From Candidatus Omnitrophota bacterium (GTDB taxonomy: Bacteria; Omnitrophota; Gorgyraeia; Gorgyraeales; Gorgyraeaceae): a stretch of DNA of 64,000 bases. Within the stretch, counting starts at the first letter, position 1. Each line of letters starts with the position of its first letter. The notes under the pieces were generated by a model. That model ran no database searches. It was not told the DNA's origin and saw nothing but the letters and a program-made list of their open reading frames with translations. The position numbers and the translations under genes are program-made. The stretch is from NCBI GenBank assembly GCA_041653835.1, contig JBAZEP010000005.1:313-64312 (forward strand). Reading direction: 5' to 3'. Shown in pieces: positions 41,464 through 64,000 of the stretch.

Positions 41464-41464
41464 G

Positions 41465-42243: not shown

Positions 42244-42264
42244 ACTTCCTCCTTTTTTATCTTT

Positions 42265-42308: not shown

Positions 42309-42323
42309 TGTACGCACCCCCTT

Positions 42324-44618: not shown

Positions 44619-44624
44619 GGCTTT

Positions 44625-45473: not shown

Positions 45474-45481
45474 ATTTTCCT

Positions 45482-46366
45482 TTACGCTTGTTTCATATAT
45501 TTTGACAATTTTATCTGTATAAATGAGACAGCCAGGAGTACCGCGCCGAACATTATGCCCTGACTGCACGCGTACCCGAACCTGGAGGAGCCCACCATCG
45601 AAGCGAGTATCCTTGTTACAGGCACTTCTGTGTGATAACCCGGCCCCCCTCCTGTCATCGAAAGTATCAACACGAAGACCTGCATTGTACCAAGCACAGT
45701 AAGGATAGAAACCAGTATAAATACGGGTATCATCAGAGGTATTGTCACATTCTTGAATAACTGCCAGCTTGACGCGCCGTCAACCTTGGCGGCTTCATAT
45801 AACTGCCTCGGTATGGTCTGTAATCCTGCCAGGAATATTATAAATCCCCATCCAAAACCCTTCCAGCAGTGGATCACGGCTACGCATGTAAGGGCTGTCT
45901 TAGGGTTCGAAAGCCAATCCGTAACCAGGTTAGACAACCCTATCTGCTGAAGCCAATAATTCAAAAGTCCGTAATTACCATCATATATCCATCTCCAGAC
46001 AAGGCCTACCACCACTTCAGACAGTACCGGAGGCAGATAAAATATGACACGGTAAATATTGCCGCCTTTTATATCTCTGTCGCACGCCAGCGCCAGCATA
46101 AGCGCCAGGGCGTTCTGGAACGTGAGCGCTATCAGGGTTATATAACCGGCCTGGAGCATCGCGGACCACCATATCTTATCCTGGAATAATTCCACGAAGT
46201 TCCTCAGGCCTATGAAATTTTTGGCGAAATCGAACCGGGCTATCCCGTCCCACTGGCATAAAGACAAGGTAAACACCTTGTAAAACGGATAGATGTAAAA
46301 TATAGAAAATATCAGGACAGCGGGCAATACAAAAAGATAATTTTTAAATATTTCCTTGGCTCTCAT
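45482..46366 (-). CDS. Carbohydrate ABC transporter permease (MalF/CUT1 family)
   Basis: 294 aa. EAA-loop YEAAKVDGASSWQLFKNVTIPL and 6 TM helices. Confidence 0.85.
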   Translation of the reverse strand: MRAKEIFKNYLFVLPAVLIFSIFYIYPFYKVFTLSLCQWDGIARFDFAKNFIGLRNFVELFQDKIWWSAMLQAGYITLIALTFQNALALMLALACDRDIKGGNIYRVIFYLPPVLSEVVVGLVWRWIYDGNYGLLNYWLQQIGLSNLVTDWLSNPKTALTCVAVIHCWKGFGWGFIIFLAGLQTIPRQLYEAAKVDGASSWQLFKNVTIPLMIPVFILVSILTVLGTMQVFVLILSMTGGGPGYHTEVPVTRILASMVGSSRFGYACSQGIMFGAVLLAVSFIQIKLSKYMKQA

Positions 46367-48195: not shown

Positions 48196-51100
48196 TTACA
48201 GGCTGCTCCTTAATTTATGTAGATCGTCTATTGTATTGTTTAATCTTTCCAGTAATTTTATATTTATACCTGTGCGGTATCTTATATTTTTCGGTATATT
48301 TACATGCTCAAGATAGTTCAGATCAAGCACGCCTGTATTGATTTTTCTGGGTTTAGCCGCCAATTCGCCCAATGTTGCGGGTATCTTTTCCCCAAGTTTA
48401 CTGAATATGAATTTATCCAGCGCCGGATACGCGACGAATTTCAATTCTTTACCCATCCCGCCTTCCACAAGTCTCCTTGCCAGTTCGATTAAATCATCGT
48501 GTATGATTTTTTCAAAACTGATGAATTCATGAGACGCTTTATAAGGCCTGTTTATAAATTCCTGTACATGCTGAGGCACGTCTATCCTTATAATGCTTTT
48601 GCCGTAAAAGACATTGAAATGGGTCTTTTCCCGCGCGATATCCATTTCTTTCCGCACCGAGGAGTCCATGTCCATGGGATCTGTGGCCAGGACATGCAGG
48701 GTCCCATCCGATAATACAGTTATATCCGCTAAAACCCCTTCGGAGCCGCTGTTTTTCATTATGCTCTTTATTTTTTTAACAGCGTCCGCGGGTTTCAGGA
48801 ATTCGTATGAGCGCGGCTGGAAGTTCAATAAGCTTTCATTCTGTTCCGGAGACCTGATAAAATATGTCTCTATGGCGAAAAGATTCAGGAATAATTCCGC
48901 CATCTCCTTAGCGATAATGTCGCCGGCGGACCCCAGGTATTCTTTATACATGTCATACCAGTCCTTCATGACTTCCTGTTCGATGTACAAAAATTCCTCG
49001 AATATCTCTTTTTTTGAACCCGCGGCGGAAGCTATATCCATCATTTTATTCCTGGTGCCGGCGGATAACCACTTGAGTGACCGTATATCCTGCGTAAGCT
49101 CCTTCTTGAAGGCGTCGAGGCTCTTGTATGAAGAATCCAGTATAAGAAATTCGTTTAATAAAGATTTTTCAGGGACATCTGCGTGTTTTACGGTGATAAC
49201 ATCATTAAATATCGCGAGTAACCTGTTTATTTCCTTAACCAGTTCTTTCTCCCCGGCCGTCGAAGCGATCTTAAGACTGTCTTTAAGATACGGTACGGCG
49301 TATTTTTTCAAGATGACCAGTTCATACGGCAAAGCGGTATTTATTACCATATCGGCTTCTTTTATCTGCGGCATTATAAATTTATCTTCAGCGGCCCTGA
49401 CCGTCTTCCATTGCCTCAATGTCTTGATAGCCGGTATGCCCCTTGATACCTCATCCCGTATGAGCCGCCTCAAAAGCCTTAAATCAGCTCCTCTAAGCGC
49501 CTTGCCGCTGCTAAGTTTTATATGGGGTCCGACATCCACGAAAACCCCGAATCTCTGACGCGCGGGTATTGCGTTCAAAATCCTGGCGCTGAGCGCGTGT
49601 ATGCCTTCTATTATCAAAACCTCATCCTGCCCCAAACTTAAAGGTTCGGATGTATCCAGGCGCGCACCCGCGTCAAAATCATAAACAGGCATTTTTATTT
49701 CTTCGCCCTTGAGCAAGGCCTCGAGATGCGAAATAAAAAGCTCCATATCAAGCGCTTCGGGAGAATCGAAATCAAATTTTCCGTCTCCGGCCAAAGGCAT
49801 ATCCGCGTGATCCTTATAATACCTGTCCATCCCGAGTATTTTTCCCTGCCGGGGCGTGGCTTTCGATATCTTATTGGACAAGGGGCTTTTCCCAGTGGAA
49901 GAACATCCGGATATAAGGAGCACACTGCGCGGAGGCATAAGATCTACATAACCGGCTATCTGGGAAACTTCTTTTTCAAGTTCCTCTTCTTCCTTTTTTA
50001 TTATACCGGATAATTTATTATGAAATACAGCGGCGTTCAACTGGTTTATATTATTTATTGAACCCTCCCGCCCCCTGGTTTTACGGCCCTTGATCCATTT
50101 TATCGATGACGCGGCTAGATCAACGGCCATCGAGAACGGAGCCACGAATACCGAGCGTAATTGAGGGTATCTTGATATGGCAAATATGTTGGCCCGTATG
50201 ACCGGCACGTGCCGCCTGCCAGCCGCGTCTCCGCTCCCTATCGCGCTGGATAACTTATAGAGTGCCGTCAAAATAAGATGGTTCAGGTGCGTCATGCCAA
50301 GAGTCGAAAAGTACGGCCGGGTGTCCACATAAATGATTTTTTCTTTATGGTCCACCCTTACCGGATATACCGTCATTTTTAAATAATTTGCGATCCGTTG
50401 AAGCCGGCTGTCTCCGGTGGGCCGCAAATATTCTTCTTTAATAGTGTAGGAAGATAAGGTAGACACAATGATATTTTTTAATTTCTCGTCATATTTTAAC
50501 CTGTCGATGAGCTTTTTTAATACCTTGTTTATCCTGCTTGCCGGGCTTAACTTAAGGAACGAATCCGGGCTTAATTTAATACGCGCAAGTTCCAGGATAA
50601 TAAAAACCGGCAGGAAACAGCCGGCGCCATAAATAAAAAAGCTAAGGCCGTTGTGCATGCCCAGTATAGCCAGGACCAGGCTTGCGGATGAAAGCACCAG
50701 GATACCGGCTAAAGCCGTAAGCGTAATTACAAGCGCTGCCGCGCGCACCCTGTCATCAGAAACCGCCTTATAGATAGCCCTCTCCCAGAATCTGGACGAG
50801 AAAACTTTGTCCGCTTTCCTTAAATCTTTTATGGCAGGATTTTCTTTGGCTATGGTTGTTATATGCTCCACAAACTTTAAAGCCTTGGCTTTTTGCGCTT
50901 TTAATTTTTTATTCAATGCATTAACATCCCTGATATCATAGGATGGATCTTCCCAGCCGGGTAATACGAAATTAATATAGGCCTTTTTGTCCCGGATATC
51001 TTTTTCAAGTATTTCAATGTTTGATCGCAATCCGCCTGCAAAACTGCTCACAATAGTATTCCAGAGCCATGTCTTGTAATAAAATGTCCCGGATTTTACA

Positions 51101-54100
51101 CTTCTTGTGAGATTGAACGCCTGCTTCAAGGCAATTTTCATATTTTTGATATCGTTTCGCTTTTTAAAATAAGCCGCGCGGTTTTTCAGGAAATCCACCC
51201 TGGATAACGCCCATTTATTTATCGTTTCTTCCGGGAAATTTTTTATTATTATGACGGCAGTTACTCTCTCCCAGTTAATTTTATCCGGCTTGAACCTGTT
51301 TATCTCCGCGAAGTTTTCCATGTCTTCGAGTATATTATCTATCGCTCTCCCGTACAATTTTTTATCCGGGTATTTTATGTATAATTTTGAGAGCATGCCG
51401 GAAAACGATTGCGACAATTTATAAGTATCAAGCTCATCCTGTCTTCTCCATTTACCCACAAGTCTCAATATCTTTGAAAACCTGTAATTCCAGTACGCGA
51501 GATCTCCATCTTGTTCAGCTATACGCCTTATGCTCCTCAGGGTGTAATTAAGATTGACTGAATCTATAATCCCGGATATATCTTTTTCGGTCAGGTACTT
51601 TCCGTAATTTTTAGATTTCCACTGCTCTACGGCAAAATCCATATCTATAGCGCCCATACCTTTTCCAAGGGCACTGAAAATAAGAATAATGCTGTCGGCG
51701 TCGCCTGTGTCGAAACTCCGGCCTTTATGGTATTTTACCCATATAGTAATAGCGTCGGATAAACTGCTTATGCGATAATCACTGCGCTGGAGAGTCCTGG
51801 ACAAAACAACCCTCATAACCCCGGATAAAGGGAACAGGCTATTGTCTTTACCGGTCAATAGCCTGGAAATAGCTTTTATTTTATCTATCCCAGCGGTCTT
51901 TACAATTTCCGCTGCGAGCACAATGTCGCGTGCGTCTTGTTCGTTTAAAAGTTTAGCGTCCGGAAGGTCCTTTTTCCATATATTGAACAGCATAAATAGA
52001 GCCGCGAGATCGGCTTTTCCCGATGATAACGCGTTATCTATAATTTCTTTAACATCCTCATGTATCATGCTGTATTTTTCCGGGAAAAAGGTATAAAAAA
52101 GCGCGTCTATTGACGATACATTTGAAAACGTTTTCATTTCAGGCGAAACAAAAAGCGCCTGGCGGACATTTAATTCCTTATTGTCTATCTTGACGGACTT
52201 AAAGATATCTTTCTGGTTCTGAAGCTGTTTATTATTCTGAAACGCTGGACCAAAGATCAATTCCACAGGTTCAGTTATCAATTTCTGGTCTGTTATGCCA
52301 AAGCGCGATTTAAGCGTAGCCGCATTCATGGTGTCCGCTTCGGATTTCAAGTAACTTATAAATCCCTGGTCGTCCAATGCGACCTTTATAGAATCCGCTA
52401 TATACCCTCTGCCTTCTGACAGGTCTTTGGCCGCAGCGAGGGATATGCTTTCAATATCAGCCTGCATGAATTTCGCGAGCTGTCTTAACATGGCGCTTAA
52501 TAAATCTTCGCCCTCTCCCGCGAGCTCCATTATCTGCGCGGCAGTGATGCCTTCTTTTACAAGATGCTCGTATAATTTTCTGTAGCCCTTAGCTTCATAA
52601 TAGACCTGCAGTGCTGCCAGCGCCTTTGCGGATTCCATAGACCCGGTCTTTTCATAATCCAGCTTCAGGCCTGCCATTGTATTAAGGTCATAGGTGTTTA
52701 TGTTGCTGAAATGCTCGAACTCCTGTTTTAATATGCCTTTGATGATATTCCCGTAAATCGCGGCGTTGACAGGATCTTCTTTTGCTTTATTTATTAACGC
52801 GCTGAACAATCCGCCATGGACATGTAAAACAGGCGTCCTCGCGCCGTCAGCGCCTACGCTCACCCTCATCTCAGCAGCGGGATCACCGAACGCCCAGTTA
52901 TTTTCCACAACGGCCTTTTCAATCATAGCCTGCATTTCCGCATCACTAAAATCTGAGAGCGGCAACCTGCCAAGCGATGCGTTGCTGGCAAGAGGCGCAT
53001 TTTTATACCTAGCGGAACTCGGGGCATTACGTTCTTTCTCTATAGCCTTGAAAGTATCTCTAAGATAACCGAACGCGCCTTGGTGTATATAGGTACGAGC
53101 ATCTTTTGTCAATGGTTCTAATCTATTGACAAGGGCCTCATCGCCTTTGATGGCGTTATTCAGCCTGTTAAGCTTTTCAGAATAATAAGCCCTTTGGATC
53201 CTTGTTTGTATATTGCCGAAAGCGACTATAATAGAGGCTATTAAAACAGGCCATCCTATATATGAAAGTAACTGCGAAGAAGTAAGCTCCAGGATCTTGC
53301 TGGAACCTAATTCAAACGAGAAATTGGACGCAAGAGGAACGACCAGGAACCATATGAATATAAATAAAGATATAATATAAGCCCTGTTCATTTCTGTCTT
53401 AAATCTTAAAACTTTTGGATCCGTTAAATTTTTCTTTTCCAATAAAGACAGGACAGGCAATAATAAACCTGCTGACACAACCAAATAAGGTGTTAACCCT
53501 ATAAAACCTCCGCCTATAAGCATTGCCGCGCCTGTAAGAGTAACGATACCAAGCCCATAACCCAATATCTTGGCAGCTATATCTCCGGAGCCTTTACCAA
53601 AAGATTTCCCTACTTTATCGTCATGCGTATAAGGCCCTATCACGATGCCGGAAGTGAATACAAGAGATATCCACAACATCAGGACATTCATAATATCCAA
53701 AGATGACATGGCAAAGAAATTCAAACCCAGCATGAAAAGTCCTATAAAGAATATGGCCTGGTAAGAACTGGTAACCTTACTTATATAATCCGGAACGCTC
53801 TTGCTATTCGCGGGACTGAGTTCCTTCAGGTTTGACCATACAATTTTAATTGCGTTTCCGCCTTTTCCTACTGCTGAAAGTTTAAATTCGAAACTCAGCT
53901 TAGTCAATAAAGCGGCTATCTGCGCGTTAGCTATTACTATAAACCTGGAGCTGAATATAAGCATATCTCTTACTCTCACGCTAAACCATTTGCCCCATCC
54001 AGTAAATCCTCCAGGCAGAGAACCAGCCAATATGAACCCTGCTATACCTGTATAGAACGGTATAAGCACCGTGACTAGGGCACCCATGCTTGCCACAAGC

Positions 54101-57100
54101 GGAGACAGGAAAATAGCGCCTGCTGCCACACCTGTCGCAAAACCAAACCAGCCTAATTTCTGGCTAAAGCCCGCGGCGCGTAAAGTCGCGAGCAGCCCAT
54201 GAAGCGTCTCTATCTGATTGAACATAGTGCCAAGAACCCAGTACAATAGATTAATGCCTACGAAAGATGTCCAGTCGCCTATTATCGCCAGAGGCAGTAT
54301 AAGTACGTTTAGGAGCGCCTGAGGCGCTATAATGAAGTGTCTGCCCGCGTTCCTTCTCGCGTCTCTTTCAAAAATAGACTCGGGCCCGTATTCATTTATA
54401 AGCTGCATCAGATAATCTTTCATTGTCTGGTATAAACCGGCTGACCAACGAGGCAAAGCTTTTACCAATTCATAGAGGCCTTTGGTTTCCCTGATCTTAT
54501 GCCACATTGCTTTTGACAGACCATATTGTGGAGATCTGCCCAGGCCGATCTGACTGTATGACGTCTGTAATACCGCCCAGTAATCCTCGCTTATACCTAT
54601 AGCATTAGGGCTGAACATCATCAACCCGAACATCCTGTCCATGAATCTTGTTTTATATTTCTTTTCTTTCCTGTCAGGGGCTAAAGAAGTTTCGGAAACT
54701 CCTTTTTTACCGAGTTTTGTAAAAGCTTCCCAAAATACGATCTGCATTATATTGCCCCAGCCCGTTCCTACCTTATCCACAAGGCCCTGCATAAACGAAC
54801 CATGGCCCTCTTCTACTAATCTTGAGAGATCTCCTGTAGGCGTAAGCACGTTAGTGGTTCCCCTGAAAGCCGCAATTATCGAAATATCAGGATTCGCCCT
54901 TATCCTTTTGACGTCTTCTATGAATTTAGTAAAATTACCAACTGTGGAATTCCTGTCCATTATTACCAGGGATTTTAAATACGGCATTTCTTCGGGCACG
55001 CTGAATAAGCCATTCATTGCTGCTGCCTTAAGACCGAATATTGTGCTGTTAAATACTACGTAAGAACTCCCTCCTGAGATTTGTTTAATAAGACGACTGA
55101 GTTTTTCGCGCTGCAAGACCTCATCGCCTTTCTCTATATTTTCTTGACTAGGCCTGCCTTTTTCATTGCCAAACTTATCATACTGGTTATGTATTATATA
55201 GAAGACTGTTTTCTCTCCTATACCAGCATCTTTAAAAGACCTTGCCATTTTTACCATGGTTGTAGCGCTGTTAATAGCGCTACCTCCTCTTATCGGCACA
55301 GGGTTAATGTCACATATCCAATCGCGAAGTTTATACGCCGCTATTATTTTATTCCTATCGGAAGGATCATAGTGTCTGCCTGAAATAATTTTCAAGTCGT
55401 TATCGATGTTTGAATTTTCATCGAGCTGTTCAATATCCCACAAACCTACCCCTGATTCTTTTTCCGCTTTATAAAGCGCGATAAGTACTCCTTTTATGCT
55501 CTCATCGCTAAGCTGGCTGACCCCTAACTCTTCCGCTATGCCTTTTATGAATTTCATGGTAGCTTCGTCTTCATTATCCCTCATGTAATTCAACTGGCTA
55601 AATATGCCATCAGCGGCATCTTCAGGCGTTTTGCCTATATGGACTTCTGATGCCAACGGCTGGCCTCCTACAAATAATACGCCTGTCTTGCCTGGATCCC
55701 AATCTTTTGGTTTTTCTGTCTTTACAGGGCCGCGCGTAGGAGCCAACAAAGCGGATATAAATGTCCACTTCTGCCATAAACCATAATTCACGAGTTGCTG
55801 CACCAGGAAAAATCCAAGCGCAGCGCCTATTACAGCTATAATACTCACTGCGTATGTCGCTACAAACCAGGTTGATACGGCGTCTGCCAGCAATATGCTT
55901 AAGCCTACAAAGCTTAACAGCTGAGCTGTATGTAATATAACAGCCCTCGGCCGGCCTACTGATACAGAAGGCCTGATCTGATTGTATACAGCTAATCCAA
56001 CCAGCGAGCGGTTCGATATTACATTATATAAGCCTTCTAATGTAATAAGCGAGGCGGCGAGGAATTTTAGCGCGGCTACTTCAAATATAGCGGCGCCCGG
56101 CATAAATACGAACATAAATATACCCAATCCCAACAAAACTACTCCGGAAATCTTTTTCAGATTAGATTTCCCGCTTGTAAATTTAGACATTGAGAAAAAC
56201 TCTGTTATAGTATTTATTATCAAAATCACTCCGGCGGCTATAAGCACAGGAAGCGATAATTGCGCCAGGCTCTGGCTGAACAGATTAGCGAAATCATTGA
56301 AAATATTAATGCCGCCCTTATCTCCCAGATGCCATAAAATACCAATTGCCGCAAGGATGAATCTGGGCATTATTGAGGTAAAATCCTGCACTAGCGGATG
56401 GATAGGCTTAGGTAAAGTCTCAACAAATTCATCATAATCTGACTTGCCTCCTTTAGGCGCTATTTCACCGCTAGACACCTTCTTCTTCAACTCAATAAAA
56501 TCTTTATCCTTGGTATCAGAAACCTCTGGCACTATTCTGATGAGCGGATCGAATCTTCCCTCGGAAATACCTATATCTGCTAACAATGACTCGAATTCAT
56601 TTACGTTATCAAAATCTGCCTTCATCCTGGCTGTGCAGTCTTTTAAATAAAGCTGGATATTAGCCCATATCTGAGGATTAACTGATCCTGGGATTACGTA
56701 TTTAGCCTGCGCTATTGTGCTGTCGCCGGCTCCCCTAACCGCTTCCAACGCTAGATATTTGGATATCTGTATGGCAAACTCATTTACCTTATTAATATCT
56801 ATCTTGTTCCCATTTTTCTCATTCCATTTTATGATAAGCGCGTATATTACCCCGAGATAACTCAAGAACGCGCCTTCTATATCACTATCTGAAAATATAA
56901 CTTTCTTACCCTTGCCTAAATTCGCGACTTCTGTTTTAAATACGTCTTCCGAAAGTACTTTAAGCGCTTCTTTAGCATGTTCTTCATTGTAATATTCTTC
57001 TTCCTCCGGGGATTTTTCTTCTTTATCTTTTTTACTTCTCCATTTCTTCCACCACTTAGACCATACAAAGTTGTAAGCCACAAGAAAACCCTGTATAATC

Positions 57101-60100
57101 AATATTATCTTGAATATGGTCCATGCAGACCCTTTCTCCGGCGCTTCTTTCTTTTCAGCGTAAGGAATGTCTGAACCGTCGCTTGTTATGTCATAAAGCG
57201 CCTGGCCGTTATCCATCGTGATAATATAAGATATCGTTATAGAAGAGACGGCCGGTTCTTTATTGCCTTTTTCATCTACGGTGAGCATCGATTTGAATCC
57301 CTGCCCTGATTCTATAAAAGTATTCTCTGCCTTATTTATATCTATCCCGGCCATCTCAGGAAGCTTTCCGTCTTTAACCTGGTAACCGTTCAGCGAATTG
57401 GCAATATAACTTTCCGCGGTTTTATTGTTCAACAGCCTGGCAACCTTCAGGAAGTGTGCGGTAGCCTCTGTAAAAATTACCCTGCCCTCCGGCCTTGTAA
57501 ACCTCGGGCTCCAGTCAATGCCCCATTCGCCGCCGGCTGTAACTCCGAATATTTTGGCGGTATTATCAAACCACTTTGTAAGTTCATTCCCATCAATATC
57601 TTTCATTTCTTTCGCGGCTTCGATAAACCATAGGGACGCGTCGCTGGAATTCCATTTTTCCAGGGCCAATATAGTGTCGTTACCTATGTTGCCCCTGACT
57701 TCCCTGACACCGACAGGTATTGTCCCATGTTCCATGGAATACGGCATTATATATTCTCTTAATAATATCCCTGTATTTTCCCTGGCGCTCATGATCTTAT
57801 CGCTTAAACCTTCCGGCAGGGATCCAAGTATGTTAGGATCTGATAAACGCGATAAGAATATATACGCCTTTGAGTTCAGAGACGTCGGATAATAATTTAA
57901 CTTCGAAGGCCATATCCCATCTTCTGTTTTACCAACCGGCTTATCTTCTGTAAAGCCTCCTTTAGAGCCTTCAAATTCAAAGAATTTATTCAGCATTTCA
58001 AAAGAGAAATTATACATGGCCTTCTTAGAAGCTGGATCCTCTATCTTCTGCGCGGCGTTGAAAGCAGCCATGCTCGCGGAAAGCTGAGCCTCAGCTTTAG
58101 GCTTGGATATATAAATCGCGCTATCTGTCACGCTGTATTCATAAGGAGCTCCTGTATTTATATGGTAATATTCAGCCAGAGGGCCTTTTCCAGCCTGCTG
58201 CATATAGAAATTTAATATTTTCTGAGCGTTCTCCGTATCTCCTATACTTAACAGGTAAGGCACCGCTATTTCCAGTTCCTTGGCAGTATTTACGTAATCC
58301 GCCGTAGGCCCATAAGTAGAAATCGCGGAAGTAGGAGTAAGGCCTGTGTTCTTGTTGAAAACAAGCGAAATCGATAAGTTGTTAAAAGACAAGGCGGTTT
58401 GTTTCTCTTCTTTCCCGATCCACGGCAATTCTCCGTCTCTATTTTGAAGATACGTATATCCTACGTCCGGGTATTCCTCGAGCTTGGAAGCTACTTCTTG
58501 AGCTGTCAATCTGATGGGTTTGAAGTCCCCGAGATAGTCTTCGTATTCAAACATCTCCCTGGCTATCTGGCCGAAAATGCTGCCGTACATCCTGTTCCTC
58601 ATATCACTGAACATCCCTTCTTTCTCAGGGAACAAGACCTTAAAGTTTTCCTGGCCGTACGCCGAGAACGTGCCTGCTTCCTGTATGTATCTCGGATTAT
58701 ACGCCTTCAGGGTCATGATACCTTTTGTTATATCAAAACTGTAAACACCTATGATCTTATTGGTCTTGTCTATTACAAGCCGATCTAAAGTATAGAGTCT
58801 TCCATTTTCCGGATCAAGAGTATAAGCCGGCTTCTCTATTTCATTCTTGTAATTCCTTATATCAAATACCTGCAAACGCGGTACAGACGAGCTTTTCATC
58901 TTCTCTGTGTATTTAACCATCCAGTTGTAGTCTTCCAGGGCGGTTTCTATAACATCATCTTTGTCTTTTTCCTGGAACATGACTATTTCCTGCTCTGACG
59001 CGTCCCTGATCTTGAACAAGTCTTTATTTACGCTGCCGTCCACGCTCTTGCCTTCGCCCATGAACATCAGCCTGGAAGCTTTGAATTTAATATCTGTATT
59101 GCTTCTATACTTAAGCGTCGCATTTGTAATGTTGTTCACGTCAAGCCCGGATGCCTTAAGCTGCTCCACCGGGATAGCATACACGTTTTCAGTAATACTG
59201 TATGGCGCTGTCACAGAATATAAAGCAGTGGCGTTATCAAAGTCCGGAACAGCTACGCGGTTAGGGGCGAGAGCCGGCCAGAAAGGAATAGTGTCTTCGC
59301 CTGATTGCCTCTCTTTATTGGAAGCGATAACCACTCTATCTCCATTTGAATCGGTTATTTCTAATTCCAGGTCCACGCCTTTGGCGTTTTCGGCGTAGAA
59401 ATACACGAAGTCATGCTTGGAGAGATCAGTAGCGCCTTTTATCAGATTCCTTTCTTTAATATCTTTCCCGGACGAATAATCCGAAACATTAAAGATAGGA
59501 TCTTCCGGGATCTTATAGACAATGCCTTTTACATCATTCCCGCTTTTATCCGTCATGTTATATACCGCGGTAGTATATTCGATGTAAGTTTTCTCGTTGC
59601 GGGTTAAACCCATCAAAATATTTTCTATGGCAGTAGAAGCGTGTATCGTATCCCACGACCTGAACATATAATCCCCTATGCTTTTTTCATCATGGTCAAA
59701 CGTATATTTTACGTTGAATTGATCTATAACGCTCAATCCGCTCCTGTCAATACGAACGACTTCCACAGCCTTATAATATATGCTGGTAAATGCCTTCTTC
59801 TCTTTTATGGCGCCTCTGCCGTTATCGCTGATAGTAAATACTTTGTGAGCTATGAGATCTTTTGTGCTGTTTAGTTTCTTTAACCATGCGTTAAACTCGG
59901 TTTCTTTGTTAAAAGGCCTGTCAGGCTTACCTTTGCTGGTCATAAAAGCGTCTTTCGCAGAAGAAGAGCTCAGAAGAGTAATTATATCTTTCAGGCGCGG
60001 GTCTTCATAAGTTACTGTCTTATTACCCTTATTGTCTTCTTTATGCTCGATAAGATCCAGCGATAACCCAAAATTACCTTTTTGGAGCCTGCCGATAGGA

Positions 60101-63100
60101 TATTGTTTGGCGCCTTCGAAATAAGTAAACGCCGTATATTGTTGAGGCGCATCCAGATGATTTATGTCAAATTCTATGGTGGCTGTTACCCTGGCCTTCT
60201 TAAACCTGTCTATGTAAGTATTTAACCTGCTGTTATCCGGGAATATATCATTGCTCTTTGCCTGGAGATTCTGTAAAAGAACCTGTTCGTTAAAGTCCGC
60301 CAGATCTGTCCTGGATATGATATCCCGCGTAAAATATAAGTTTCCGCCTGATATATAACTTATAGGCCTGTTGCCTGGCGCGTAAAAAACTATACGCTGG
60401 CTTCCGGAACCGTTATTTTCCTCCACGACCTCAAATTCTGAATTTTTAAGCACACCTAAAACATAATCATAAGAAGCCTGGTTTCTGAAGAATTTATCTT
60501 TTCCTATGAACGCGTCTTTATTGATTTCCAGGGATTTTATTGTTTCATCTGTTATATTTTTAGGTAAAGTTACGGGCATCGCGTTCCCGGCATATTGCCC
60601 GATACCACTTCTCTCGTATTGATATTTCTCTCTATAAATTTCTTTTTCCTGATTTTCATCGAATTGCATCAGGGTAAAAAATGCGCCTTGCGGAGTGTTT
60701 TCCACTCTGGCCATTTCCATGCCGTCTCTTGTAAAGCTAATCCACTCTTTTATGTCCCCGTCTCTCAGAGATATACTATTTTTTGTTATAGCACAACCGC
60801 TGAGGTAATCTACTATATCTCTCTTACCAAGGCCTCTTATAAAATCAGGCGTTCTATAACCGCCTCTTACAATATCTGTTATTTTTAATGATGTGGGCGT
60901 TCTGGTTATATAAGGCTTATATATGGTTACTTCTTCACTTTTTGGCAAATTTGAGACCTTACTTCCCGCTTCTACTCTAAGTGGGTCAATGCCAAGATCT
61001 AATAATGCCCTGGTAGTAGTGGCTGATATGGATATGGAGTTCTCGCTGTTTTCAGGCGTATTATCACCTTTTATATCTGATTTCTGCATCCCGGAAGCGG
61101 TAGCGTAAGGCAATCCTGTTTCCCCATTCCTTTTTATGGTAAGCTTATCTACTTCATCCTTATAAAACTTCGCCTTATTCCTGTAATTTTCAGCCGCCTT
61201 ATCATTGCCGTCTCTTTCAGCTCTGTCAGCAGCGTGGACATAAGCCGTGATCATGTAGTTAGTCCATTCAACTGAGATCATCGGTATCCTTGTTACCGCC
61301 TCTATCTCTTCCCGGGTAAGTTTCCTACCGAGCTCTTTTTCTTTTTCACTTATATTGTTTCTTGTTATTGTTTCCCTTAATTTATTATCTATAAAATCAA
61401 ATCCCTTTACTTTTTTGCCTCTGAAATTCACTTCTACTTCGCAATTTTTCTCCGCGAAATCCACGAATGTGCGCGGATTTAATCCTTTAAAATAATAATC
61501 CCCGTATGACGCTACTACTGAAGCGCCCCATGCCTGCGCGTCTGTCGCGACAGTTCTGTCAACCGCGTTATCCCCGCGATCCCCCTGGATAAACGCGTAA
61601 CTGTCTTTTATACCTCTTATAAATCTTCCTTCGTTTGTTATAAACGCTCCGCCTTTTTCAACAGGTGTCCTTAAGAATGTGCTTATCCTCTTGGCAGCAT
61701 CCCTGTACTTCTGTCCGTCATTACCTTCTATCTTATCGCCGAGATATTTTAATAATACAAAGTGATCCAGGTTATGTTCTACGGCAGCTGTGCCCTGGCC
61801 CGGGCCCAGAAGTATGAATCCCGCATTCTCTCCCAGGTCTGTGGTATATCTTGTCTCAAATCCAAGCAGGGCATCAGCTATGTTCCTTGCCATAACCAGT
61901 TTTTTATTACCATTATCCCCGAATTTCTCTATATAGTGCGCTAATTTTATGCCTGTCCACGCGTTAGGCCCACCCGGATTATTATATTCCTGTATATTCC
62001 CATATCTGACGTCGTATGCCGAATAATACAAACCGGACTTCTTGAAAGCGTCATTATTAAGGAAATCTATTGTCTTATCCGTTTTGTCTTTTCCATCAGT
62101 ATATATATTAAGGATATTATCCAGATCAAGGTCGAATGTAAATGACCAATTCCTTATGTTAGCGTCTGTGGTGCCGTCATAACTGATAGGAAGCCCTGTA
62201 TTTTCGCTCCTTATAAATTCCGAGCCGGCGTGTTTAACCGCGTCCTCAGGAGTAACCTTTGTCCCTTCTTCCGCTTCCGTAGAGAATAACCCGCCTATAA
62301 AATTAACTATACCTTTTACAAGGCTGATTATGGGCTCAAAACTGAATCCTGCCTGTATCACTTTAGGCTTGTAAGTATTATAGGCATAGAGGGTCTTTTT
62401 GGGAGCCTGTGTCTTTAGCGTGATAATTTTAGGCTGTTCTGTTTTTTTGGTTTCCGCTACAAGCTGTTTAGGCGCTTCCCTGCGTATCAGCTGGCCTGTT
62501 TTTAGAGGCGCCTTGTCCTGTTGTTTTATATTTATCTCTTCTTTTGTTTCCGCTGGTTTTTTATCAAGATCTACTTTTTCTTTTATCTCTATTATCAGCG
62601 GATCGAAGAATTTCCCTTGTTTCGTCTTAAGATCCAACATCGCCCTTGTCGCGGTGGCTGCGGCGGAAATCGCCTTGTCGCCATTCATAGGCGTCTTGTC
62701 AGTAGGGTCATCCGCTTTCTGCGTATAAGAACGGGTAGCATATGGTAAACCCTGGTTTCCATCGATCTCTATCGTAAGTTTATCCACTTCGTTCTTATAA
62801 AATTCAGCCTGTCTCCTGTAATATTCGGCGGCGTCTTTATTGCCTTGTTTTTCAGCCCATTCCGCTGAATGGCGGTATGCTGTAATCATATAATTGGTCC
62901 ACTCAACGGAGATCATGCCCGCTTCTCTCCATGATTTTTCTATAGCTCTTATCTGGTTATCTATACTGTCTTTATTTTTTTTCAGTTCATATACATCCTG
63001 GTCAAGGTCAGGAGCATCAATTAAGCGCTGCAGCTGAGATGATCTATTTCTTAATCCAGCCAAAATATTTTTTATCGCTTTTATATTAAAGAAATCAAAA

Positions 63101-64000
63101 CCCGCGACTTTAGAACCATTGAAATTTACCTCTGTGGCGCAATTTTTCTCGGCAAAATGCACGAATGTGCGGGGATCCAGCCCTTTAAAATCGTCCTGGT
63201 ATTCGGCTATCAGAGATGCGCCCCATGCCTGGACGTCTGTAGCTACAGTATAATCGATGACATCGTCTCCGCGCTCTCCATTGATAAGCCTGTTTATGTC
63301 CCTTATACCTCTTACGAACCTGCCTGATATTTTCCCGTCGCCTTCTCTTGTCAGGTAAGCGCCTCCTCCTCCCGTAGGAGCTTTAAGGAAATTGGCTATC
63401 TTCGCGGCAATATCCCTGTATTTAGCGCCTTTCTCTCCTTCTATCTTATCCCCGAGGTACCTGAACAGCGTATAATGGTCTTCCATATGCTCTATACTTG
63501 CTGTATTCCTGTTATCAGGCCCTAAAGGTATGATCAACCCGGGCGCCACAAACCCGTCCAGTTTTACCACACTTATTTCTCTCCCGATCTTCAGGATATC
63601 ATCCGCCGTAGTCATCAGGAAATTAAGTTTCTTATTATCCTTGTCTCCTTTATTCTCTATATCATGCGCTATCCTTATGCCTATCCACGCCGCCGGGCCT
63701 CCCGGATTCTTGAATTCCGCGGATTTACCTGTTTTTGTATTGTAAGCTGTATAGAAGAATCCACTCTGGTCCTTCTGTGAAGGTTTGCTTAGATCATCTA
63801 TCAGTTTGAGTGCATTTTCATCGTTTGGCGCGTAGAAATCGCTCAATATGCCTTTTAAGGCCCAGTCAAAAGTAAAGACCACGTCTTTTAGATAAGGATC
63901 CGTGCTATTGATATAGCTCGGATCGGTTTCTTTGTATTTTAAGGCATCTTCAGGCGTAACATGCTCTTTCGCTTGTTTCGTTATATTCTTCGCGTTCTTT
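48196..64000 (-). CDS. Giant multi-domain membrane protein, >5,260 aa; N-terminus extends beyond the window end
   Basis: Single uninterrupted minus-strand reading frame. The ORF track gives 5,228 aa from a GTG at 63880-63882. The same frame stays open, with no stop, through 64000 and continues the repeat pattern (...VTPEDALKYKETDPSYINSTDPYLKD-VVFTFDW...). Codon usage matches the neighbouring genes. It carries bona fide domains (see sub-features). Confidence 0.85.
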   Translation of the reverse strand, partial: KNAKNITKQAKEHVTPEDALKYKETDPSYINSTDPYLKDVVFTFDWALKGILSDFYAPNDENALKLIDDLSKPSQKDQSGFFYTAYNTKTGKSAEFKNPGGPAAWIGIRIAHDIENKGDKDNKKLNFLMTTADDILKIGREISVVKLDGFVAPGLIIPLGPDNRNTASIEHMEDHYTLFRYLGDKIEGEKGAKYRDIAAKIANFLKAPTGGGGAYLTREGDGKISGRFVRGIRDINRLINGERGDDVIDYTVATDVQAWGASLIAEYQDDFKGLDPRTFVHFAEKNCATEVNFNGSKVAGFDFFNIKAIKNILAGLRNRSSQLQRLIDAPDLDQDVYELKKNKDSIDNQIRAIEKSWREAGMISVEWTNYMITAYRHSAEWAEKQGNKDAAEYYRRQAEFYKNEVDKLTIEIDGNQGLPYATRSYTQKADDPTDKTPMNGDKAISAAATATRAMLDLKTKQGKFFDPLIIEIKEKVDLDKKPAETKEEINIKQQDKAPLKTGQLIRREAPKQLVAETKKTEQPKIITLKTQAPKKTLYAYNTYKPKVIQAGFSFEPIISLVKGIVNFIGGLFSTEAEEGTKVTPEDAVKHAGSEFIRSENTGLPISYDGTTDANIRNWSFTFDLDLDNILNIYTDGKDKTDKTIDFLNNDAFKKSGLYYSAYDVRYGNIQEYNNPGGPNAWTGIKLAHYIEKFGDNGNKKLVMARNIADALLGFETRYTTDLGENAGFILLGPGQGTAAVEHNLDHFVLLKYLGDKIEGNDGQKYRDAAKRISTFLRTPVEKGGAFITNEGRFIRGIKDSYAFIQGDRGDNAVDRTVATDAQAWGASVVASYGDYYFKGLNPRTFVDFAEKNCEVEVNFRGKKVKGFDFIDNKLRETITRNNISEKEKELGRKLTREEIEAVTRIPMISVEWTNYMITAYVHAADRAERDGNDKAAENYRNKAKFYKDEVDKLTIKRNGETGLPYATASGMQKSDIKGDNTPENSENSISISATTTRALLDLGIDPLRVEAGSKVSNLPKSEEVTIYKPYITRTPTSLKITDIVRGGYRTPDFIRGLGKRDIVDYLSGCAITKNSISLRDGDIKEWISFTRDGMEMARVENTPQGAFFTLMQFDENQEKEIYREKYQYERSGIGQYAGNAMPVTLPKNITDETIKSLEINKDAFIGKDKFFRNQASYDYVLGVLKNSEFEVVEENNGSGSQRIVFYAPGNRPISYISGGNLYFTRDIISRTDLADFNEQVLLQNLQAKSNDIFPDNSRLNTYIDRFKKARVTATIEFDINHLDAPQQYTAFTYFEGAKQYPIGRLQKGNFGLSLDLIEHKEDNKGNKTVTYEDPRLKDIITLLSSSSAKDAFMTSKGKPDRPFNKETEFNAWLKKLNSTKDLIAHKVFTISDNGRGAIKEKKAFTSIYYKAVEVVRIDRSGLSVIDQFNVKYTFDHDEKSIGDYMFRSWDTIHASTAIENILMGLTRNEKTYIEYTTAVYNMTDKSGNDVKGIVYKIPEDPIFNVSDYSSGKDIKERNLIKGATDLSKHDFVYFYAENAKGVDLELEITDSNGDRVVIASNKERQSGEDTIPFWPALAPNRVAVPDFDNATALYSVTAPYSITENVYAIPVEQLKASGLDVNNITNATLKYRSNTDIKFKASRLMFMGEGKSVDGSVNKDLFKIRDASEQEIVMFQEKDKDDVIETALEDYNWMVKYTEKMKSSSVPRLQVFDIRNYKNEIEKPAYTLDPENGRLYTLDRLVIDKTNKIIGVYSFDITKGIMTLKAYNPRYIQEAGTFSAYGQENFKVLFPEKEGMFSDMRNRMYGSIFGQIAREMFEYEDYLGDFKPIRLTAQEVASKLEEYPDVGYTYLQNRDGELPWIGKEEKQTALSFNNLSISLVFNKNTGLTPTSAISTYGPTADYVNTAKELEIAVPYLLSIGDTENAQKILNFYMQQAGKGPLAEYYHINTGAPYEYSVTDSAIYISKPKAEAQLSASMAAFNAAQKIEDPASKKAMYNFSFEMLNKFFEFEGSKGGFTEDKPVGKTEDGIWPSKLNYYPTSLNSKAYIFLSRLSDPNILGSLPEGLSDKIMSARENTGILLREYIMPYSMEHGTIPVGVREVRGNIGNDTILALEKWNSSDASLWFIEAAKEMKDIDGNELTKWFDNTAKIFGVTAGGEWGIDWSPRFTRPEGRVIFTEATAHFLKVARLLNNKTAESYIANSLNGYQVKDGKLPEMAGIDINKAENTFIESGQGFKSMLTVDEKGNKEPAVSSITISYIITMDNGQALYDITSDGSDIPYAEKKEAPEKGSAWTIFKIILIIQGFLVAYNFVWSKWWKKWRSKKDKEEKSPEEEEYYNEEHAKEALKVLSEDVFKTEVANLGKGKKVIFSDSDIEGAFLSYLGVIYALIIKWNEKNGNKIDINKVNEFAIQISKYLALEAVRGAGDSTIAQAKYVIPGSVNPQIWANIQLYLKDCTARMKADFDNVNEFESLLADIGISEGRFDPLIRIVPEVSDTKDKDFIELKKKVSSGEIAPKGGKSDYDEFVETLPKPIHPLVQDFTSIMPRFILAAIGILWHLGDKGGINIFNDFANLFSQSLAQLSLPVLIAAGVILIINTITEFFSMSKFTSGKSNLKKISGVVLLGLGIFMFVFMPGAAIFEVAALKFLAASLITLEGLYNVISNRSLVGLAVYNQIRPSVSVGRPRAVILHTAQLLSFVGLSILLADAVSTWFVATYAVSIIAVIGAALGFFLVQQLVNYGLWQKWTFISALLAPTRGPVKTEKPKDWDPGKTGVLFVGGQPLASEVHIGKTPEDAADGIFSQLNYMRDNEDEATMKFIKGIAEELGVSQLSDESIKGVLIALYKAEKESGVGLWDIEQLDENSNIDNDLKIISGRHYDPSDRNKIIAAYKLRDWICDINPVPIRGGSAINSATTMVKMARSFKDAGIGEKTVFYIIHNQYDKFGNEKGRPSQENIEKGDEVLQREKLSRLIKQISGGSSYVVFNSTIFGLKAAAMNGLFSVPEEMPYLKSLVIMDRNSTVGNFTKFIEDVKRIRANPDISIIAAFRGTTNVLTPTGDLSRLVEEGHGSFMQGLVDKVGTGWGNIMQIVFWEAFTKLGKKGVSETSLAPDRKEKKYKTRFMDRMFGLMMFSPNAIGISEDYWAVLQTSYSQIGLGRSPQYGLSKAMWHKIRETKGLYELVKALPRWSAGLYQTMKDYLMQLINEYGPESIFERDARRNAGRHFIIAPQALLNVLILPLAIIGDWTSFVGINLLYWVLGTMFNQIETLHGLLATLRAAGFSQKLGWFGFATGVAAGAIFLSPLVASMGALVTVLIPFYTGIAGFILAGSLPGGFTGWGKWFSVRVRDMLIFSSRFIVIANAQIAALLTKLSFEFKLSAVGKGGNAIKIVWSNLKELSPANSKSVPDYISKVTSSYQAIFFIGLFMLGLNFFAMSSLDIMNVLMLWISLVFTSGIVIGPYTHDDKVGKSFGKGSGDIAAKILGYGLGIVTLTGAAMLIGGGFIGLTPYLVVSAGLLLPVLSLLEKKNLTDPKVLRFKTEMNRAYIISLFIFIWFLVVPLASNFSFELGSSKILELTSSQLLSYIGWPVLIASIIVAFGNIQTRIQRAYYSEKLNRLNNAIKGDEALVNRLEPLTKDARTYIHQGAFGYLRDTFKAIEKERNAPSSARYKNAPLASNASLGRLPLSDFSDAEMQAMIEKAVVENNWAFGDPAAEMRVSVGADGARTPVLHVHGGLFSALINKAKEDPVNAAIYGNIIKGILKQEFEHFSNINTYDLNTMAGLKLDYEKTGSMESAKALAALQVYYEAKGYRKLYEHLVKEGITAAQIMELAGEGEDLLSAMLRQLAKFMQADIESISLAAAKDLSEGRGYIADSIKVALDDQGFISYLKSEADTMNAATLKSRFGITDQKLITEPVELIFGPAFQNNKQLQNQKDIFKSVKIDNKELNVRQALFVSPEMKTFSNVSSIDALFYTFFPEKYSMIHEDVKEIIDNALSSGKADLAALFMLFNIWKKDLPDAKLLNEQDARDIVLAAEIVKTAGIDKIKAISRLLTGKDNSLFPLSGVMRVVLSRTLQRSDYRISSLSDAITIWVKYHKGRSFDTGDADSIILIFSALGKGMGAIDMDFAVEQWKSKNYGKYLTEKDISGIIDSVNLNYTLRSIRRIAEQDGDLAYWNYRFSKILRLVGKWRRQDELDTYKLSQSFSGMLSKLYIKYPDKKLYGRAIDNILEDMENFAEINRFKPDKINWERVTAVIIIKNFPEETINKWALSRVDFLKNRAAYFKKRNDIKNMKIALKQAFNLTRSVKSGTFYYKTWLWNTIVSSFAGGLRSNIEILEKDIRDKKAYINFVLPGWEDPSYDIRDVNALNKKLKAQKAKALKFVEHITTIAKENPAIKDLRKADKVFSSRFWERAIYKAVSDDRVRAAALVITLTALAGILVLSSASLVLAILGMHNGLSFFIYGAGCFLPVFIILELARIKLSPDSFLKLSPASRINKVLKKLIDRLKYDEKLKNIIVSTLSSYTIKEEYLRPTGDSRLQRIANYLKMTVYPVRVDHKEKIIYVDTRPYFSTLGMTHLNHLILTALYKLSSAIGSGDAAGRRHVPVIRANIFAISRYPQLRSVFVAPFSMAVDLAASSIKWIKGRKTRGREGSINNINQLNAAVFHNKLSGIIKKEEEELEKEVSQIAGYVDLMPPRSVLLISGCSSTGKSPLSNKISKATPRQGKILGMDRYYKDHADMPLAGDGKFDFDSPEALDMELFISHLEALLKGEEIKMPVYDFDAGARLDTSEPLSLGQDEVLIIEGIHALSARILNAIPARQRFGVFVDVGPHIKLSSGKALRGADLRLLRRLIRDEVSRGIPAIKTLRQWKTVRAAEDKFIMPQIKEADMVINTALPYELVILKKYAVPYLKDSLKIASTAGEKELVKEINRLLAIFNDVITVKHADVPEKSLLNEFLILDSSYKSLDAFKKELTQDIRSLKWLSAGTRNKMMDIASAAGSKKEIFEEFLYIEQEVMKDWYDMYKEYLGSAGDIIAKEMAELFLNLFAIETYFIRSPEQNESLLNFQPRSYEFLKPADAVKKIKSIMKNSGSEGVLADITVLSDGTLHVLATDPMDMDSSVRKEMDIAREKTHFNVFYGKSIIRIDVPQHVQEFINRPYKASHEFISFEKIIHDDLIELARRLVEGGMGKELKFVAYPALDKFIFSKLGEKIPATLGELAAKPRKINTGVLDLNYLEHVNIPKNIRYRTGINIKLLERLNNTIDDLHKLRSSL
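49365..49935 (-). other. Uridine/cytidine-kinase / phosphoribulokinase-family P-loop kinase domain inside the giant protein (residues ~4650-4840)
   Basis: Walker A GCSSTGKS at 49885-49908; DRYYKD (uridine kinase DSYYK); FDFDSPEALDMELFISHLEALLKGEEIKMPVYDFDAGAR; VLIIEGIHAL; FGVFVDVGPHIKL...RLLRRLIRDEVSRG. All UK/PRK-family motifs are present, in the canonical order. Confidence 0.75.
54315..55683 (-). other. GT-A-like processive glycan-synthase-like soluble module inside the giant protein (residues ~2734-3190), flanked by polytopic TM bundles
   Basis: ...FMDRMFGLMMFSPNAIGISEDYWAVLQTSYSQIGLGRSPQYGLSKAMWHKIRETKGLYELVKALPRWSAG... The SED (54583-54591) ... RW spacing is 46 aa. It recalls the TED ... 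QxxRW motifs of GT2 cellulose/chitin synthases and the NEDIYAG ... YYQCGKGRD ... LPxDRF block of Fks1 (GT48). The upstream bundle (residues ~2508-2730) has about 6-7 TM helices and the downstream bundle (~3190-3670) about 10-12. Confidence 0.35.
60885..62142 (-). repeat. Internal tandem repeat module B of the giant gene (protein residues ~581-1000)
   Basis: Aligns with module A residue-by-residue (NPGGPxAW.GI..AH.IE..GD...KKL, HxEDH..L.YLGDKIEG..G.KYRD.A, VATD.QAWGAS, ISVEWTNYMITAY, KLTI...G..GLPYAT). The DNA is about 70% identical at a period of about 1,734 nt. Confidence 0.7.
62620..64000 (-). repeat. Internal tandem repeat module A of the giant gene (continues upstream beyond the window)
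   Basis: Same as module B. The sequence encoded at 63883-64000 (…VTPEDALKYKE…) matches the module-B linker (…TKVTPEDAVKHAG…). So at least one further module lies outside the window. Confidence 0.7.

Follow-up and report, generated by a model that had tools for sequence, protein, structure and literature searches.

The window analysed here is a 64,000-nt stretch of a contig from a Candidatus Omnitrophota bacterium. Its minus strand carries a giant open reading frame (ORF) with two related modules and, directly 3′ of this gene, a cluster of sugar-related genes. Starting from the 5′ side of the gene, the features are as follows, where L001 to L004 denote four giant relatives in other assemblies:

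48196..63999, minus strand: giant ORF, the last 5,267 codons plus stop codon of a 5,959-aa protein; it runs off the window, with 692 codons beyond
62560..63993, minus strand: module A, an (α/α)6 toroid with a long helical insertion C-terminal to the GFDF motif (window aa 3-480, full-protein aa 695-1172; module HMM E 3.6e-195)
62212..62559, minus strand: inter-module linker of ~115 aa, rich in K/E/P/T/Q and ending in the module B cap 'VTPEDAVK'
60943..62211, minus strand: module B, the copy modelled with AF2 (window aa 597-1019, full-protein aa 1289-1711; module HMM E 6.5e-203)
59590..60942, minus strand: conserved post-module region of ~450 aa, present after the two modules in each of the five giant proteins (BLASTP to L001 (52%), L002, L003 and L004)
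57430..58254, minus strand: domain C, a third, strongly diverged toroid-like domain (aa ~1916-2190; whole domain aa ~1860-2270)
57064..57126, minus strand: first predicted TM helix after the modules (hydropathy scan), with a strongly positive C-terminal flank
40240..47703, minus strand: sugar-uptake/glycosidase cluster, with an SBP gene, two ABC permease genes, a GH2_C/GH72-like gene, a 240-aa gene and a GH-like gene (Pfam)

The ORF is 100% identical, at 5,267 of 5,267 positions, to part of MFA5388497.1 (hereafter P0032; 5,959 aa, from a Ca. Omnitrophota MAG, on a 66,504-bp contig), which adds 692 aa upstream of the part in the window. Homology to the relatives starts at residue 15 of P0032 and the relatives carry at least 2,580 residues more upstream, so the annotated start looks truncated, and the 5′ end of the gene may be incomplete. 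A hydropathy scan found at least 16 TM-like segments in the giant protein. Within the window part, PRK/uridine kinase is the only Pfam domain, and the Pfam search found no SecA, GT, HEAT or PilZ domain there. We also considered the central membrane region (motifs ISEDYW…PRWSAG, aa 3135-3190) as a processive glycosyltransferase. This candidate found no support and plays no part in the explanation below: its AF2 model is unusable at a pLDDT of 46.7, and Pfam and PDB profile searches gave no match. With a glycosyltransferase in this region, the protein itself could have made a polymer on which the toroids act.

The two modules form a real tandem repeat, as a sequence-only reading of the window had claimed. 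BLASTP aligns them at 45% identity over 498 columns (E 1e-108), and a local alignment covers 442 residues at 51% identity with a score of 931, compared with 42±5 (maximum 60) in 100 shuffles. All four of the conserved motif blocks quoted in that reading are found in both copies. The modules are offset by 539-578 aa, or 1617-1734 nt. The same reading put DNA identity at about 70%, which is right for the conserved blocks (at best 73-74%, in stretches of 93-113 nt that lie 1698 and 1728 nt apart), but too high overall: codon-aligned identity is 57.8%, with 64, 70 and 39% at codon positions 1, 2 and 3. Tandem Repeats Finder detected no short near-identical repeats in the region at periods up to 500 nt, a range that is blind to the 1.7-kb unit.

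Other details of the repeat had to be revised. The match at 63883-64000 that had been assigned to the linker is a short 'VTPEDA.K' match and falls in HMM positions 1-12, the cap at the N-terminus of either module. The modules are not N-terminal but internal, with at least 692 aa preceding module A and ~2,900-3,360 aa preceding it in the four relatives. Further copies had been expected upstream, but the module HMM and BLAST found neither a module nor a linker in the 692 upstream aa of P0032.

L001 to L004 are each encoded by one uninterrupted frame of more than 6,800 aa and have exactly two modules apiece. The first module of the window is 62% identical to the first of L001 and the second is 70% identical to the second of L001, compared with 51% between the two modules of the window. 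In a neighbour-joining tree, the first copies from the window and from L001, L002 and L003 form one cluster and the second copies another. Third codon positions, with 39% identity between copies, are near saturation. Given that first copies group with each other, and second copies with each other, in the three Omnitrophota relatives, the duplication is old and no assembly artefact, and the tree points to one such event before at least four Omnitrophota giant genes diverged. The linker sequence is not conserved among relatives, and the post-module region has no Pfam match in any of the five giant proteins. Toroid 1, linker, toroid 2 and the ~450-aa region constitute a conserved cassette.

Diverged repeats had raised the worry of an assembly error. 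That the tandem arrangement or copy number is an artefact of a repetitive gene would fit with the source being a MAG contig, with the known fragmentation of giant repetitive genes in assembly and with the apparently truncated start of P0032. However, four other, independent assemblies show the order toroid 1, toroid 2, post-module region again, and in the three from Omnitrophota each copy is orthologous to its own counterpart. DNA identity between the copies is also low, at 58%, and rises to ~73-74% only in ~100-nt blocks. We consider such an artefact extremely improbable. For annotation, the copy number and position of the modules are now corrected, and the repeat poses no assembly risk. Copy-specific residues were also sought as a mark of different specificities of toroids 1 and 2. 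Just one position tells the two copies apart across lineages, and there is thus no sign of differing specificities.

The AF2 model of module B (pLDDT 91.3, pTM 0.91) consists of six helix hairpins (helix pairs 36-62, 91-127, 155-192, 234-268, 325-366 and 406-416) arranged as a barrel with long loops on one face, as in the six-hairpin (α/α)6 toroid superfamily. Foldseek gave 176 PDB matches to this model at E<=1e-3, and those listed are (α/α)6 enzymes, including dextran dextrinase, GH8, GH76, GH88, GH94, GH100 and AGE epimerases (best E 1.5e-8, TM 0.42-0.56). The earlier hint of an (α/α)-type carbohydrate-active fold is thus upheld at the level of the fold. The reaction type is less constrained, since non-hydrolases (AGE epimerases/isomerases and phosphorylases) match at the same TM of ~0.5. 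Searches of Pfam, NCBIfam and PDB sequences with the modules gave chance or sub-threshold matches only. The modules belong to an uncharacterised branch of the six-hairpin glycosidase-like superfamily.

Several known families share the fold. GH76 α-1,6-mannanases (Bacillus circulans Aman6, 4BOK/4D4A/5AGD; Bacteroides BT3792, 4C1S) have the same (α/α)6 architecture (Foldseek TM 0.46-0.54). No other PDB family was reached by a sequence profile (Aman6 at E 5.5e-4), and GH76 is also the commonest among weak Pfam matches of 33 homologs (GH76 in 16/33, GH127 in 10/33, C5-epimerase C-terminus in 8/33 and GH88 in 2/33). However, identity to GH76 is 8-12%, the profile match rests on one helix-hairpin motif, and the catalytic Asp-Asp is absent: in the profile alignment, it lies opposite Gly92-Pro93 ('NDDIMWW' of Aman6 versus 'tGPNaWiG' in the family). 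Neither module matches Pfam PF03663 (GH76), and the best E-value among the 33 homologs, 7.3e-6, belongs to a partial match below the gathering score. The best Foldseek match is the GH15-type dextran dextrinase 9JU0 (E 1.5e-8, TMq 0.54, 15% identity). Both modules match the same region of the GH15 glucoamylase profile TIGR01535 weakly (E 0.014 and 0.023), and their scores of 13.1 and 13.8 bits compare with a cut-off of 741.9. GH8/BcsZ-type endoglucanases and AGE-family epimerases also have the toroid fold (Foldseek E 3e-7 to 1e-5), but no sequence similarity.

Conservation within the family centers on acidic residues. In 140 family domains, E156 and E326 are conserved in 100%, D283 and G92 in 99%, D235 in 98% and D38 and Y380 in 97% (module-B numbering). 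Both copies in the window keep all near-invariant residues, which in module A include D45, E170, D255, D302, E366 and Y420, and W96 (module-B numbering) is also kept in both. In the AF2 model, the near-invariant residues sit at the starts of helices 36-48, 91-108, 155-171, 234-247 and 325-344 or in the preceding loops, on the side of the barrel where (α/α)6 enzymes have their active-site funnel.

These residues bear on the question of whether the toroids are enzymes at all. They could instead bind glycans or act as a scaffold, anchoring the giant protein to a polysaccharide or a partner protein. The modules match no catalytic motif of a known CAZy family and lack the GH76 dyad, scaffold repeats are abundant in giant Omnitrophota proteins (10.64898/2026.06.07.730766), and domain C is an instance of the fold persisting without the invariant Glu. 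On the other hand, five carboxylates are 97-100% conserved in 140 domains of ~25-30% identity, all on the funnel face, a degree of constancy that is more usual for catalysis than for binding. We therefore regard a non-catalytic role as unlikely.

Domain C directly precedes the first membrane helix. Its direct match to the module HMM is weak, and hhalign of alignment A6 against family alignment A3 gives a probability of 90.4% (E 1.4e-6, 223 columns). Among the giant relatives, BLASTP finds it in L002 only. The invariant Glu of its EHNLD motif is replaced (SLNSK), and domain C is probably non-catalytic, having lost this residue.

The toroids belong to a larger family, for which a profile search of a sequence library at E<=1e-3 found 2,277 cluster representatives. 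Both modules match the family profile at full length and retain D38, E156, D235, D283, E326 and Y380. The commonest form in the family is a protein in which PilZ, a c-di-GMP receptor, is followed by a single TM helix and the toroid. A PilZ domain occurs in 70/80 metagenome loci and 22/33 homologs, whereas the giant protein has no PilZ. A metagenome scan with the close alignment A4 gave no match. Exactly one TM helix separates PilZ and toroid in 57 of 61 PilZ-type relatives, and the flank facing PilZ is the more positive one. By analogy only, the combination of a periplasmic (α/α)6 enzyme and a PilZ c-di-GMP receptor resembles the BcsZ–BcsA pairing of cellulose synthesis. Unlike GH8/BcsZ, PilZ and toroid are fused in this family via one TM helix in a single polypeptide.

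As to the giant proteins, the flank charges of the TM helices bracketing the module region place the modules outside in L001 and L003 and are ambiguous in L002 and L004, by a simple heuristic of hydropathy and charge. In the window, the downstream helix (57064..57126) has three K+R on the N side versus seven on the C side (net charge 0 versus +5), and this one helix also agrees with modules outside. No signal peptide or TM was found in the first 2,985 aa of P0032 as annotated. If its annotated start were genuine, the modules could be cytoplasmic. The extracytoplasmic location suggested earlier is plausible, going by the membrane topology of relatives.

Alternatively, the toroids could be sugar epimerases or isomerases (AGE or cellobiose-2-epimerase type) or phosphorylases, perhaps cytoplasmic ones in a multi-enzyme protein of sugar metabolism. 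AGE enzymes use conserved histidines, but the near-invariant residues here are carboxylates, and His157 is conserved in less than 80% of the family. Moreover, PilZ-type relatives have their toroid across the membrane from a cytoplasmic c-di-GMP receptor. Such enzymes would be consistent with the best Foldseek matches, among which are cellobiose 2-epimerase, mannose isomerase, GlcNAc 2-epimerase and GH94 phosphorylases (TM up to 0.56), with the missing N-terminal export signal of P0032 and with the proposal that many long Omnitrophota proteins are membrane-anchored cytoplasmic enzymes. West-Roberts et al. also labelled a comparable domain 'cellobiose-2-epimerase-like' (10.1101/2023.11.21.568195). 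Overall, we find this alternative quite improbable.

The repeat, copy number, fold, residue conservation and orthology of the copies are, taken alone, close to certain. As a whole, we lean somewhat towards a reading in which two paralogous (α/α)6 toroids form an old tandem pair that is active in extracytoplasmic glycan processing; here, we infer location, catalysis and substrate class. The two toroids are joined by a flexible, charged linker inside a multi-pass membrane protein and would be exposed at the outer, extracytoplasmic face of the inner membrane. Both would be active glycan-processing units, as hydrolases or transglycosylases, and would act on an envelope polysaccharide of a prey, of a host or of the cell itself. 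The SBP/ABC system, whose genes follow directly downstream, would then import the products.

More tentatively, the modules might be a not-yet-classified family of glycoside hydrolases or transglycosylases with a catalytic set of its own (Glu156/Glu326 plus three Asp). The ancestral form would be a trans-membrane switch in one polypeptide, with a periplasmic glycanase under the control of a cytoplasmic PilZ domain that binds c-di-GMP. Its toroid would have been copied twice into giant proteins of the Omnitrophota envelope, where the fixed cassette would serve to attack prey or to remodel the cell's own envelope glycans. We view this extended proposal as possible, although doubtful.

Similar domains are already known in giant Omnitrophota proteins. 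West-Roberts et al. (2023, 10.1101/2023.11.21.568195) described 'Archaeovorins' with GH76-like and cellobiose-2-epimerase-like domains that are recognizable by structure only. Like the protein studied here, these are multi-TM giants of Omnitrophota with domains invisible to HMM libraries; their best structural labels, GH76 (4C1S) and cellobiose 2-epimerase, are both among our Foldseek matches; and SBP/ABC and glycosidase genes lie downstream in both cases. However, 'Archaeovorins' have at least 30,000 aa and SecA DEAD-like, GT, methyltransferase or NUDIX domains, whereas the present protein has 5,959 aa as annotated, and a Pfam search of its window part found none of these domains. The conserved tandem pair and the link to PilZ–TM–toroid proteins are not in that work, whose published domain descriptions were the basis of the comparison.

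Giant Omnitrophota proteins are mostly unannotated, and their role in predation or symbiosis has only been inferred. One recurring cassette of two toroids and a conserved tail is now fixed, and it belongs to a family of ~2,300 cluster representatives that can be searched by HMM and has a conserved acidic pocket. A module of ~450 aa is a small, expressible target for glycan assays. Most members join PilZ and a periplasmic toroid in one chain, which suggests, in a testable way, that c-di-GMP could control an extracytoplasmic enzyme.

A general linkage of the family to a GH94/SBP/GH2-like sugar cluster was rejected. Within 10 kb of the 80 metagenome loci, GH94 occurs in 5/80, SBP in 5/80 and GH2_C-like genes in 7/80, i.e. 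only 5-7 of 80 loci for each. At two loci, L005 and L011, the gene order of the cluster in the window flanks a stand-alone PilZ–toroid gene, and the cluster there also includes a GH94 gene.

The frame of the giant gene runs uninterrupted through 5,267 codons to its stop (63999 to 48196, minus strand). The "GTG start" at 63882 proposed by the ORF tool is merely the first start-like codon, and no stop lies ahead of the frame within the window. A module of roughly 450 residues occurs twice within the first 1,040 residues of the window ORF. The protein-level repeat noted in the sequence-only reading is real and far above chance: a BLASTP comparison of the first 585 aa with the remainder yielded one match (E 1e-108, 45% identity, 498 columns), and Smith-Waterman alignment of modules A and B paired 442 residues at 51% identity (score 931, versus 42±5 for shuffled sequences), with an inter-copy offset of 539-578 aa (1617-1734 nt). 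The four motif blocks quoted in that reading are all found in both copies. Its estimate of about 70% DNA identity holds in the conserved blocks (73-74%), but not over whole modules (57.8%, codon-aligned). Third codon positions are 39% identical, i.e., near saturation. Low DNA identity and near-saturated third positions, together with the strong protein match, indicate an old duplication and not repetitive DNA. Tandem Repeats Finder, run with periods of at most 500 nt, detected no short near-identical repeats in the module region.

The following features of the giant gene and its surroundings are discussed below.

62560-63993, minus strand: module A (window aa 3-480)
60943-62211, minus strand: module B (window aa 597-1019)
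59590-60942, minus strand: post-module region of ~450 aa, directly after module B, conserved in all five giant proteins
57430-58254 (whole ~57190-58422, window aa ~1860-2270), minus strand: third, diverged toroid-like domain, just before the first TM helix
49336-49914, minus strand: uridine kinase/phosphoribulokinase-type P-loop domain (Pfam PRK E 3.3e-20; NCBIfam udk E 6.4e-32, below the cut-off)
40240-47703, minus strand: sugar cluster directly downstream of the giant gene, with a solute-binding gene (SBP), two ABC permeases, a GH2_C/GH72-like gene, a 240-aa gene and a GH-like gene

The modules were thought to lie at the N-terminus, with more copies upstream. An exhaustive profile search recovered MFA5388497.1, a "hypothetical protein" of 5,959 aa on a 66,504-bp contig from a Candidatus Omnitrophota MAG. 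All 5,267 residues of the window ORF are matched exactly in it, and 692 more precede them. The module HMM places module A at residues 695-1172 and module B at 1289-1711, with one weak third match far downstream, and has no match within the first 692 aa, where BLAST against the A–linker–B unit gave chance matches only. Scanning one genome per species, we found four related loci (L001-L004): two in the Omnitrophota MAG JAHIPS01 (L001 and L002, which are paralogous giant genes), the other two coming one each from Omnitrophota JAUYDX01 and a Planctomycetia MAG. Each 21-kb locus reads through as one frame of 6,862-7,160 codons, open at both ends. Each contains exactly two modules, the ~2,900-3,360 residues before module 1 are module-free, and the stretch leading directly into module 1 shares homology with the 692 aa that MFA5388497.1 adds. 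Since no upstream module occurs in MFA5388497.1 and exactly two occur in each relative, both expectations were wrong; the modules are internal, and the extent and position of the repeat had been mis-stated. The similarity at 63883-64000 ("HVTPEDALKYK" versus "KVTPEDAVKHA"), which had been taken for the inter-module linker, comes from the N-terminal cap that each module carries. Because homology to L001 begins at residue 15 of MFA5388497.1 and L001 extends at least 2,580 residues further upstream, the annotated start may reflect a 5′-truncated gene, or one split near the contig end. The extra upstream part of the relatives (at least 2,580 aa) contains TM or signal-anchor segments.

Over HMM-aligned columns, the first modules of the window and L001 are 62% identical and the second modules 70%, versus 51% for the two window modules. 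In a neighbour-joining tree, the modules from the window, L001, L002 and L003 sort by copy, all first modules in one clade and all second modules in another; the Planctomycetia pair stands apart. These copy-wise clades indicate that the duplication predates the split of these lineages and that the copy order was retained. The post-module region (52% identity between the window and L001) has no Pfam match in any of the five giant proteins. Low DNA identity, an order kept across lineages and this shared region together remove the earlier worry of an assembly error. According to a 2026 preprint, long Omnitrophota proteins as a rule contain internal domain repeats, which are old and whose nucleotide similarity has dissolved (10.64898/2026.06.07.730766). 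Among eight aligned copies, 39 positions are invariant and only one divides all first from all second copies; no signs of diverged specificity between copies 1 and 2 were seen.

Pfam searches of the whole giant protein gave nothing real except the P-loop kinase domain near the C-terminus, the sole recognised domain within 5,267 aa. Both modules match the NCBIfam GH15 glucoamylase model at just 13 bits, and a PDB sequence search with the modules returned no relative. A word-indexed protein search found 3 relatives, and 31 with a profile; most have 600-700 aa and an N-terminal PilZ domain, and come from Omnitrophota, Ratteibacteria and Eisenbacteria MAGs. The exhaustive search raised this to 2,277 cluster representatives at E≤1e-3 (1,224 at E≤1e-10, 319 at E≤1e-30). 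Named members are all "hypothetical" or "PilZ domain-containing". After the GFDF motif, giant-type modules carry a helical insertion, 35-60 aa long, that is absent from PilZ-type proteins.

The AlphaFold2 model of module B (33 sequences) consists of paired helices (pLDDT 91.3, pTM 0.91). Foldseek gave 176 PDB matches at E≤1e-3, and those listed are all (α/α)6 enzymes: the best is a GH15-like dextran dextrinase (E 1.5e-8), and the others include GH8 Rex8A, cellobiose/GlcNAc 2-epimerases, mannose isomerase, GH76 mannanases, GH100 invertase, GH94 phosphorylases and GH88. No family is prominent among the listed matches (TM 0.42-0.56, identity 7-15%). Weak Pfam matches among 33 members are to GH76 (16), GH127 (10), the C5-epimerase C-terminus (8) and GH88 (2). 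Model, Foldseek matches and weak GH profile matches thus bear out the earlier hint of an (α/α)-type fold. Membership in GH76 was considered, as a profile built from 35 toroid-only sequences picks up GH76 Aman6 in the PDB (E 5.5e-4), but the catalytic Asp-Asp of Aman6 aligns with Gly92-Pro93 of the toroid family, and this assignment was rejected. The module could be placed in none of the enzyme families tested.

Conservation over 140 domain sequences (module-B numbering) is highest at the following residues.

E156, E326: 100%
G92, G281, D283: 99%
D235: 98%
D38, Y380: 97%
G211: 95%
W96: 94%
D229: 92%

All eleven are retained in both window modules. In the model, the conserved residues occupy either the initial turns of helices 36-48, 91-108, 155-171, 234-247 and 325-344 or the long loops preceding them. 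The same face of (α/α)6 enzymes forms the substrate funnel. As to the function of the modules, we infer that catalysis would be favoured over mere binding, mainly because the conserved residues sit on this face.

The third toroid-like domain is common to the window protein and L002 only. Direct HMM matches to it are weak; hhalign of this region and its L002 counterpart against the family alignment gave a probability of 90.4% (E 1.4e-6, 223 columns). Counterparts of D235, D283 and E326 are retained, and "TEHNLD" has become "TSLNSK", with loss of the invariant Glu156.

Exactly one hydrophobic segment separates PilZ and toroid in 57 of 61 PilZ-type proteins, and this segment is flanked by more positive charge towards PilZ (+4.1) than towards the toroid (+2.0). 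PilZ binds c-di-GMP in the cytoplasm, which places the toroid of these proteins outside it. The first helix after the modules in the window protein is flanked by 3 K+R on its N side versus 7 on its C side. In L001 and L003, the charges of the last helix before and the first after the modules put the intervening 3,500-4,000 residues outside. Given ambiguous flank charges in L002 and L004 and no export signal in the first 2,985 residues of MFA5388497.1 as annotated, an extracytoplasmic location of the modules is only probable. The family-fused PilZ has canonical-looking c-di-GMP motifs, with RxxxR in the family alignment consensus and DxSxxG in one PilZ-type homolog (P0002, residues 1-115). This suggests a real c-di-GMP receptor, one TM helix away from an extracytoplasmic toroid.

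Downstream of Omnitrophota giant genes, pilZ genes have been described together with genes for sugar import and glycosidases, and the giant proteins contain "GH76-like" and "cellobiose-2-epimerase-like" domains recognised by structure only (10.1101/2023.11.21.568195). The window's layout and toroid domains agree with both descriptions. Toroid "glycosidase-like" domains within these proteins are therefore already described in outline, and the window is a further example. New are the fixed two-copy cassette plus a third degenerate copy, the definition of a sizeable uncharacterised family that has an acidic pocket of its own, and the usual PilZ fusion of this family.

In the window, a ROK protein is also encoded downstream with these genes, and the cluster at 40240-47703 contains no PilZ–toroid gene. 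Stand-alone PilZ–TM–toroid genes occur at two other loci (L005, 6711-8708; L011, 8001-10127), where GH2_C-like, small, GH116, GH94, SBP and permease genes follow the order of the window cluster. Among 80 metagenome loci of the family, PilZ is present at 70, with GH94 nearby at 5, SBP at 5 and a GH2_C-like gene at 7. We rejected the sugar-cluster link as a general family rule, as it holds in ~6-9% of these loci.

A central membrane-associated region (53740-55422, minus strand) contains "GISEDYW" and, ~45 aa on, "LPRWSAG" (~54430-54597). Processive glycosyltransferases have ED and QxxRW motifs, which these two may resemble. Profile searches of Pfam and the PDB with the region were empty, its six homologs (Verrucomicrobia, metagenomes) have no Pfam domain, and its AlphaFold2 model has a pLDDT of 46.7. 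The genes at 24181-36082 (minus strand) are ordinary chromosomal neighbours; they encode T2SS protein F and two AcrB-type RND pumps, accompanied by an HlyD-type adaptor and an OEP/TolC-like protein. Equally ordinary is the one tRNA-Ala(GGC) at 4024-4099 (plus strand).
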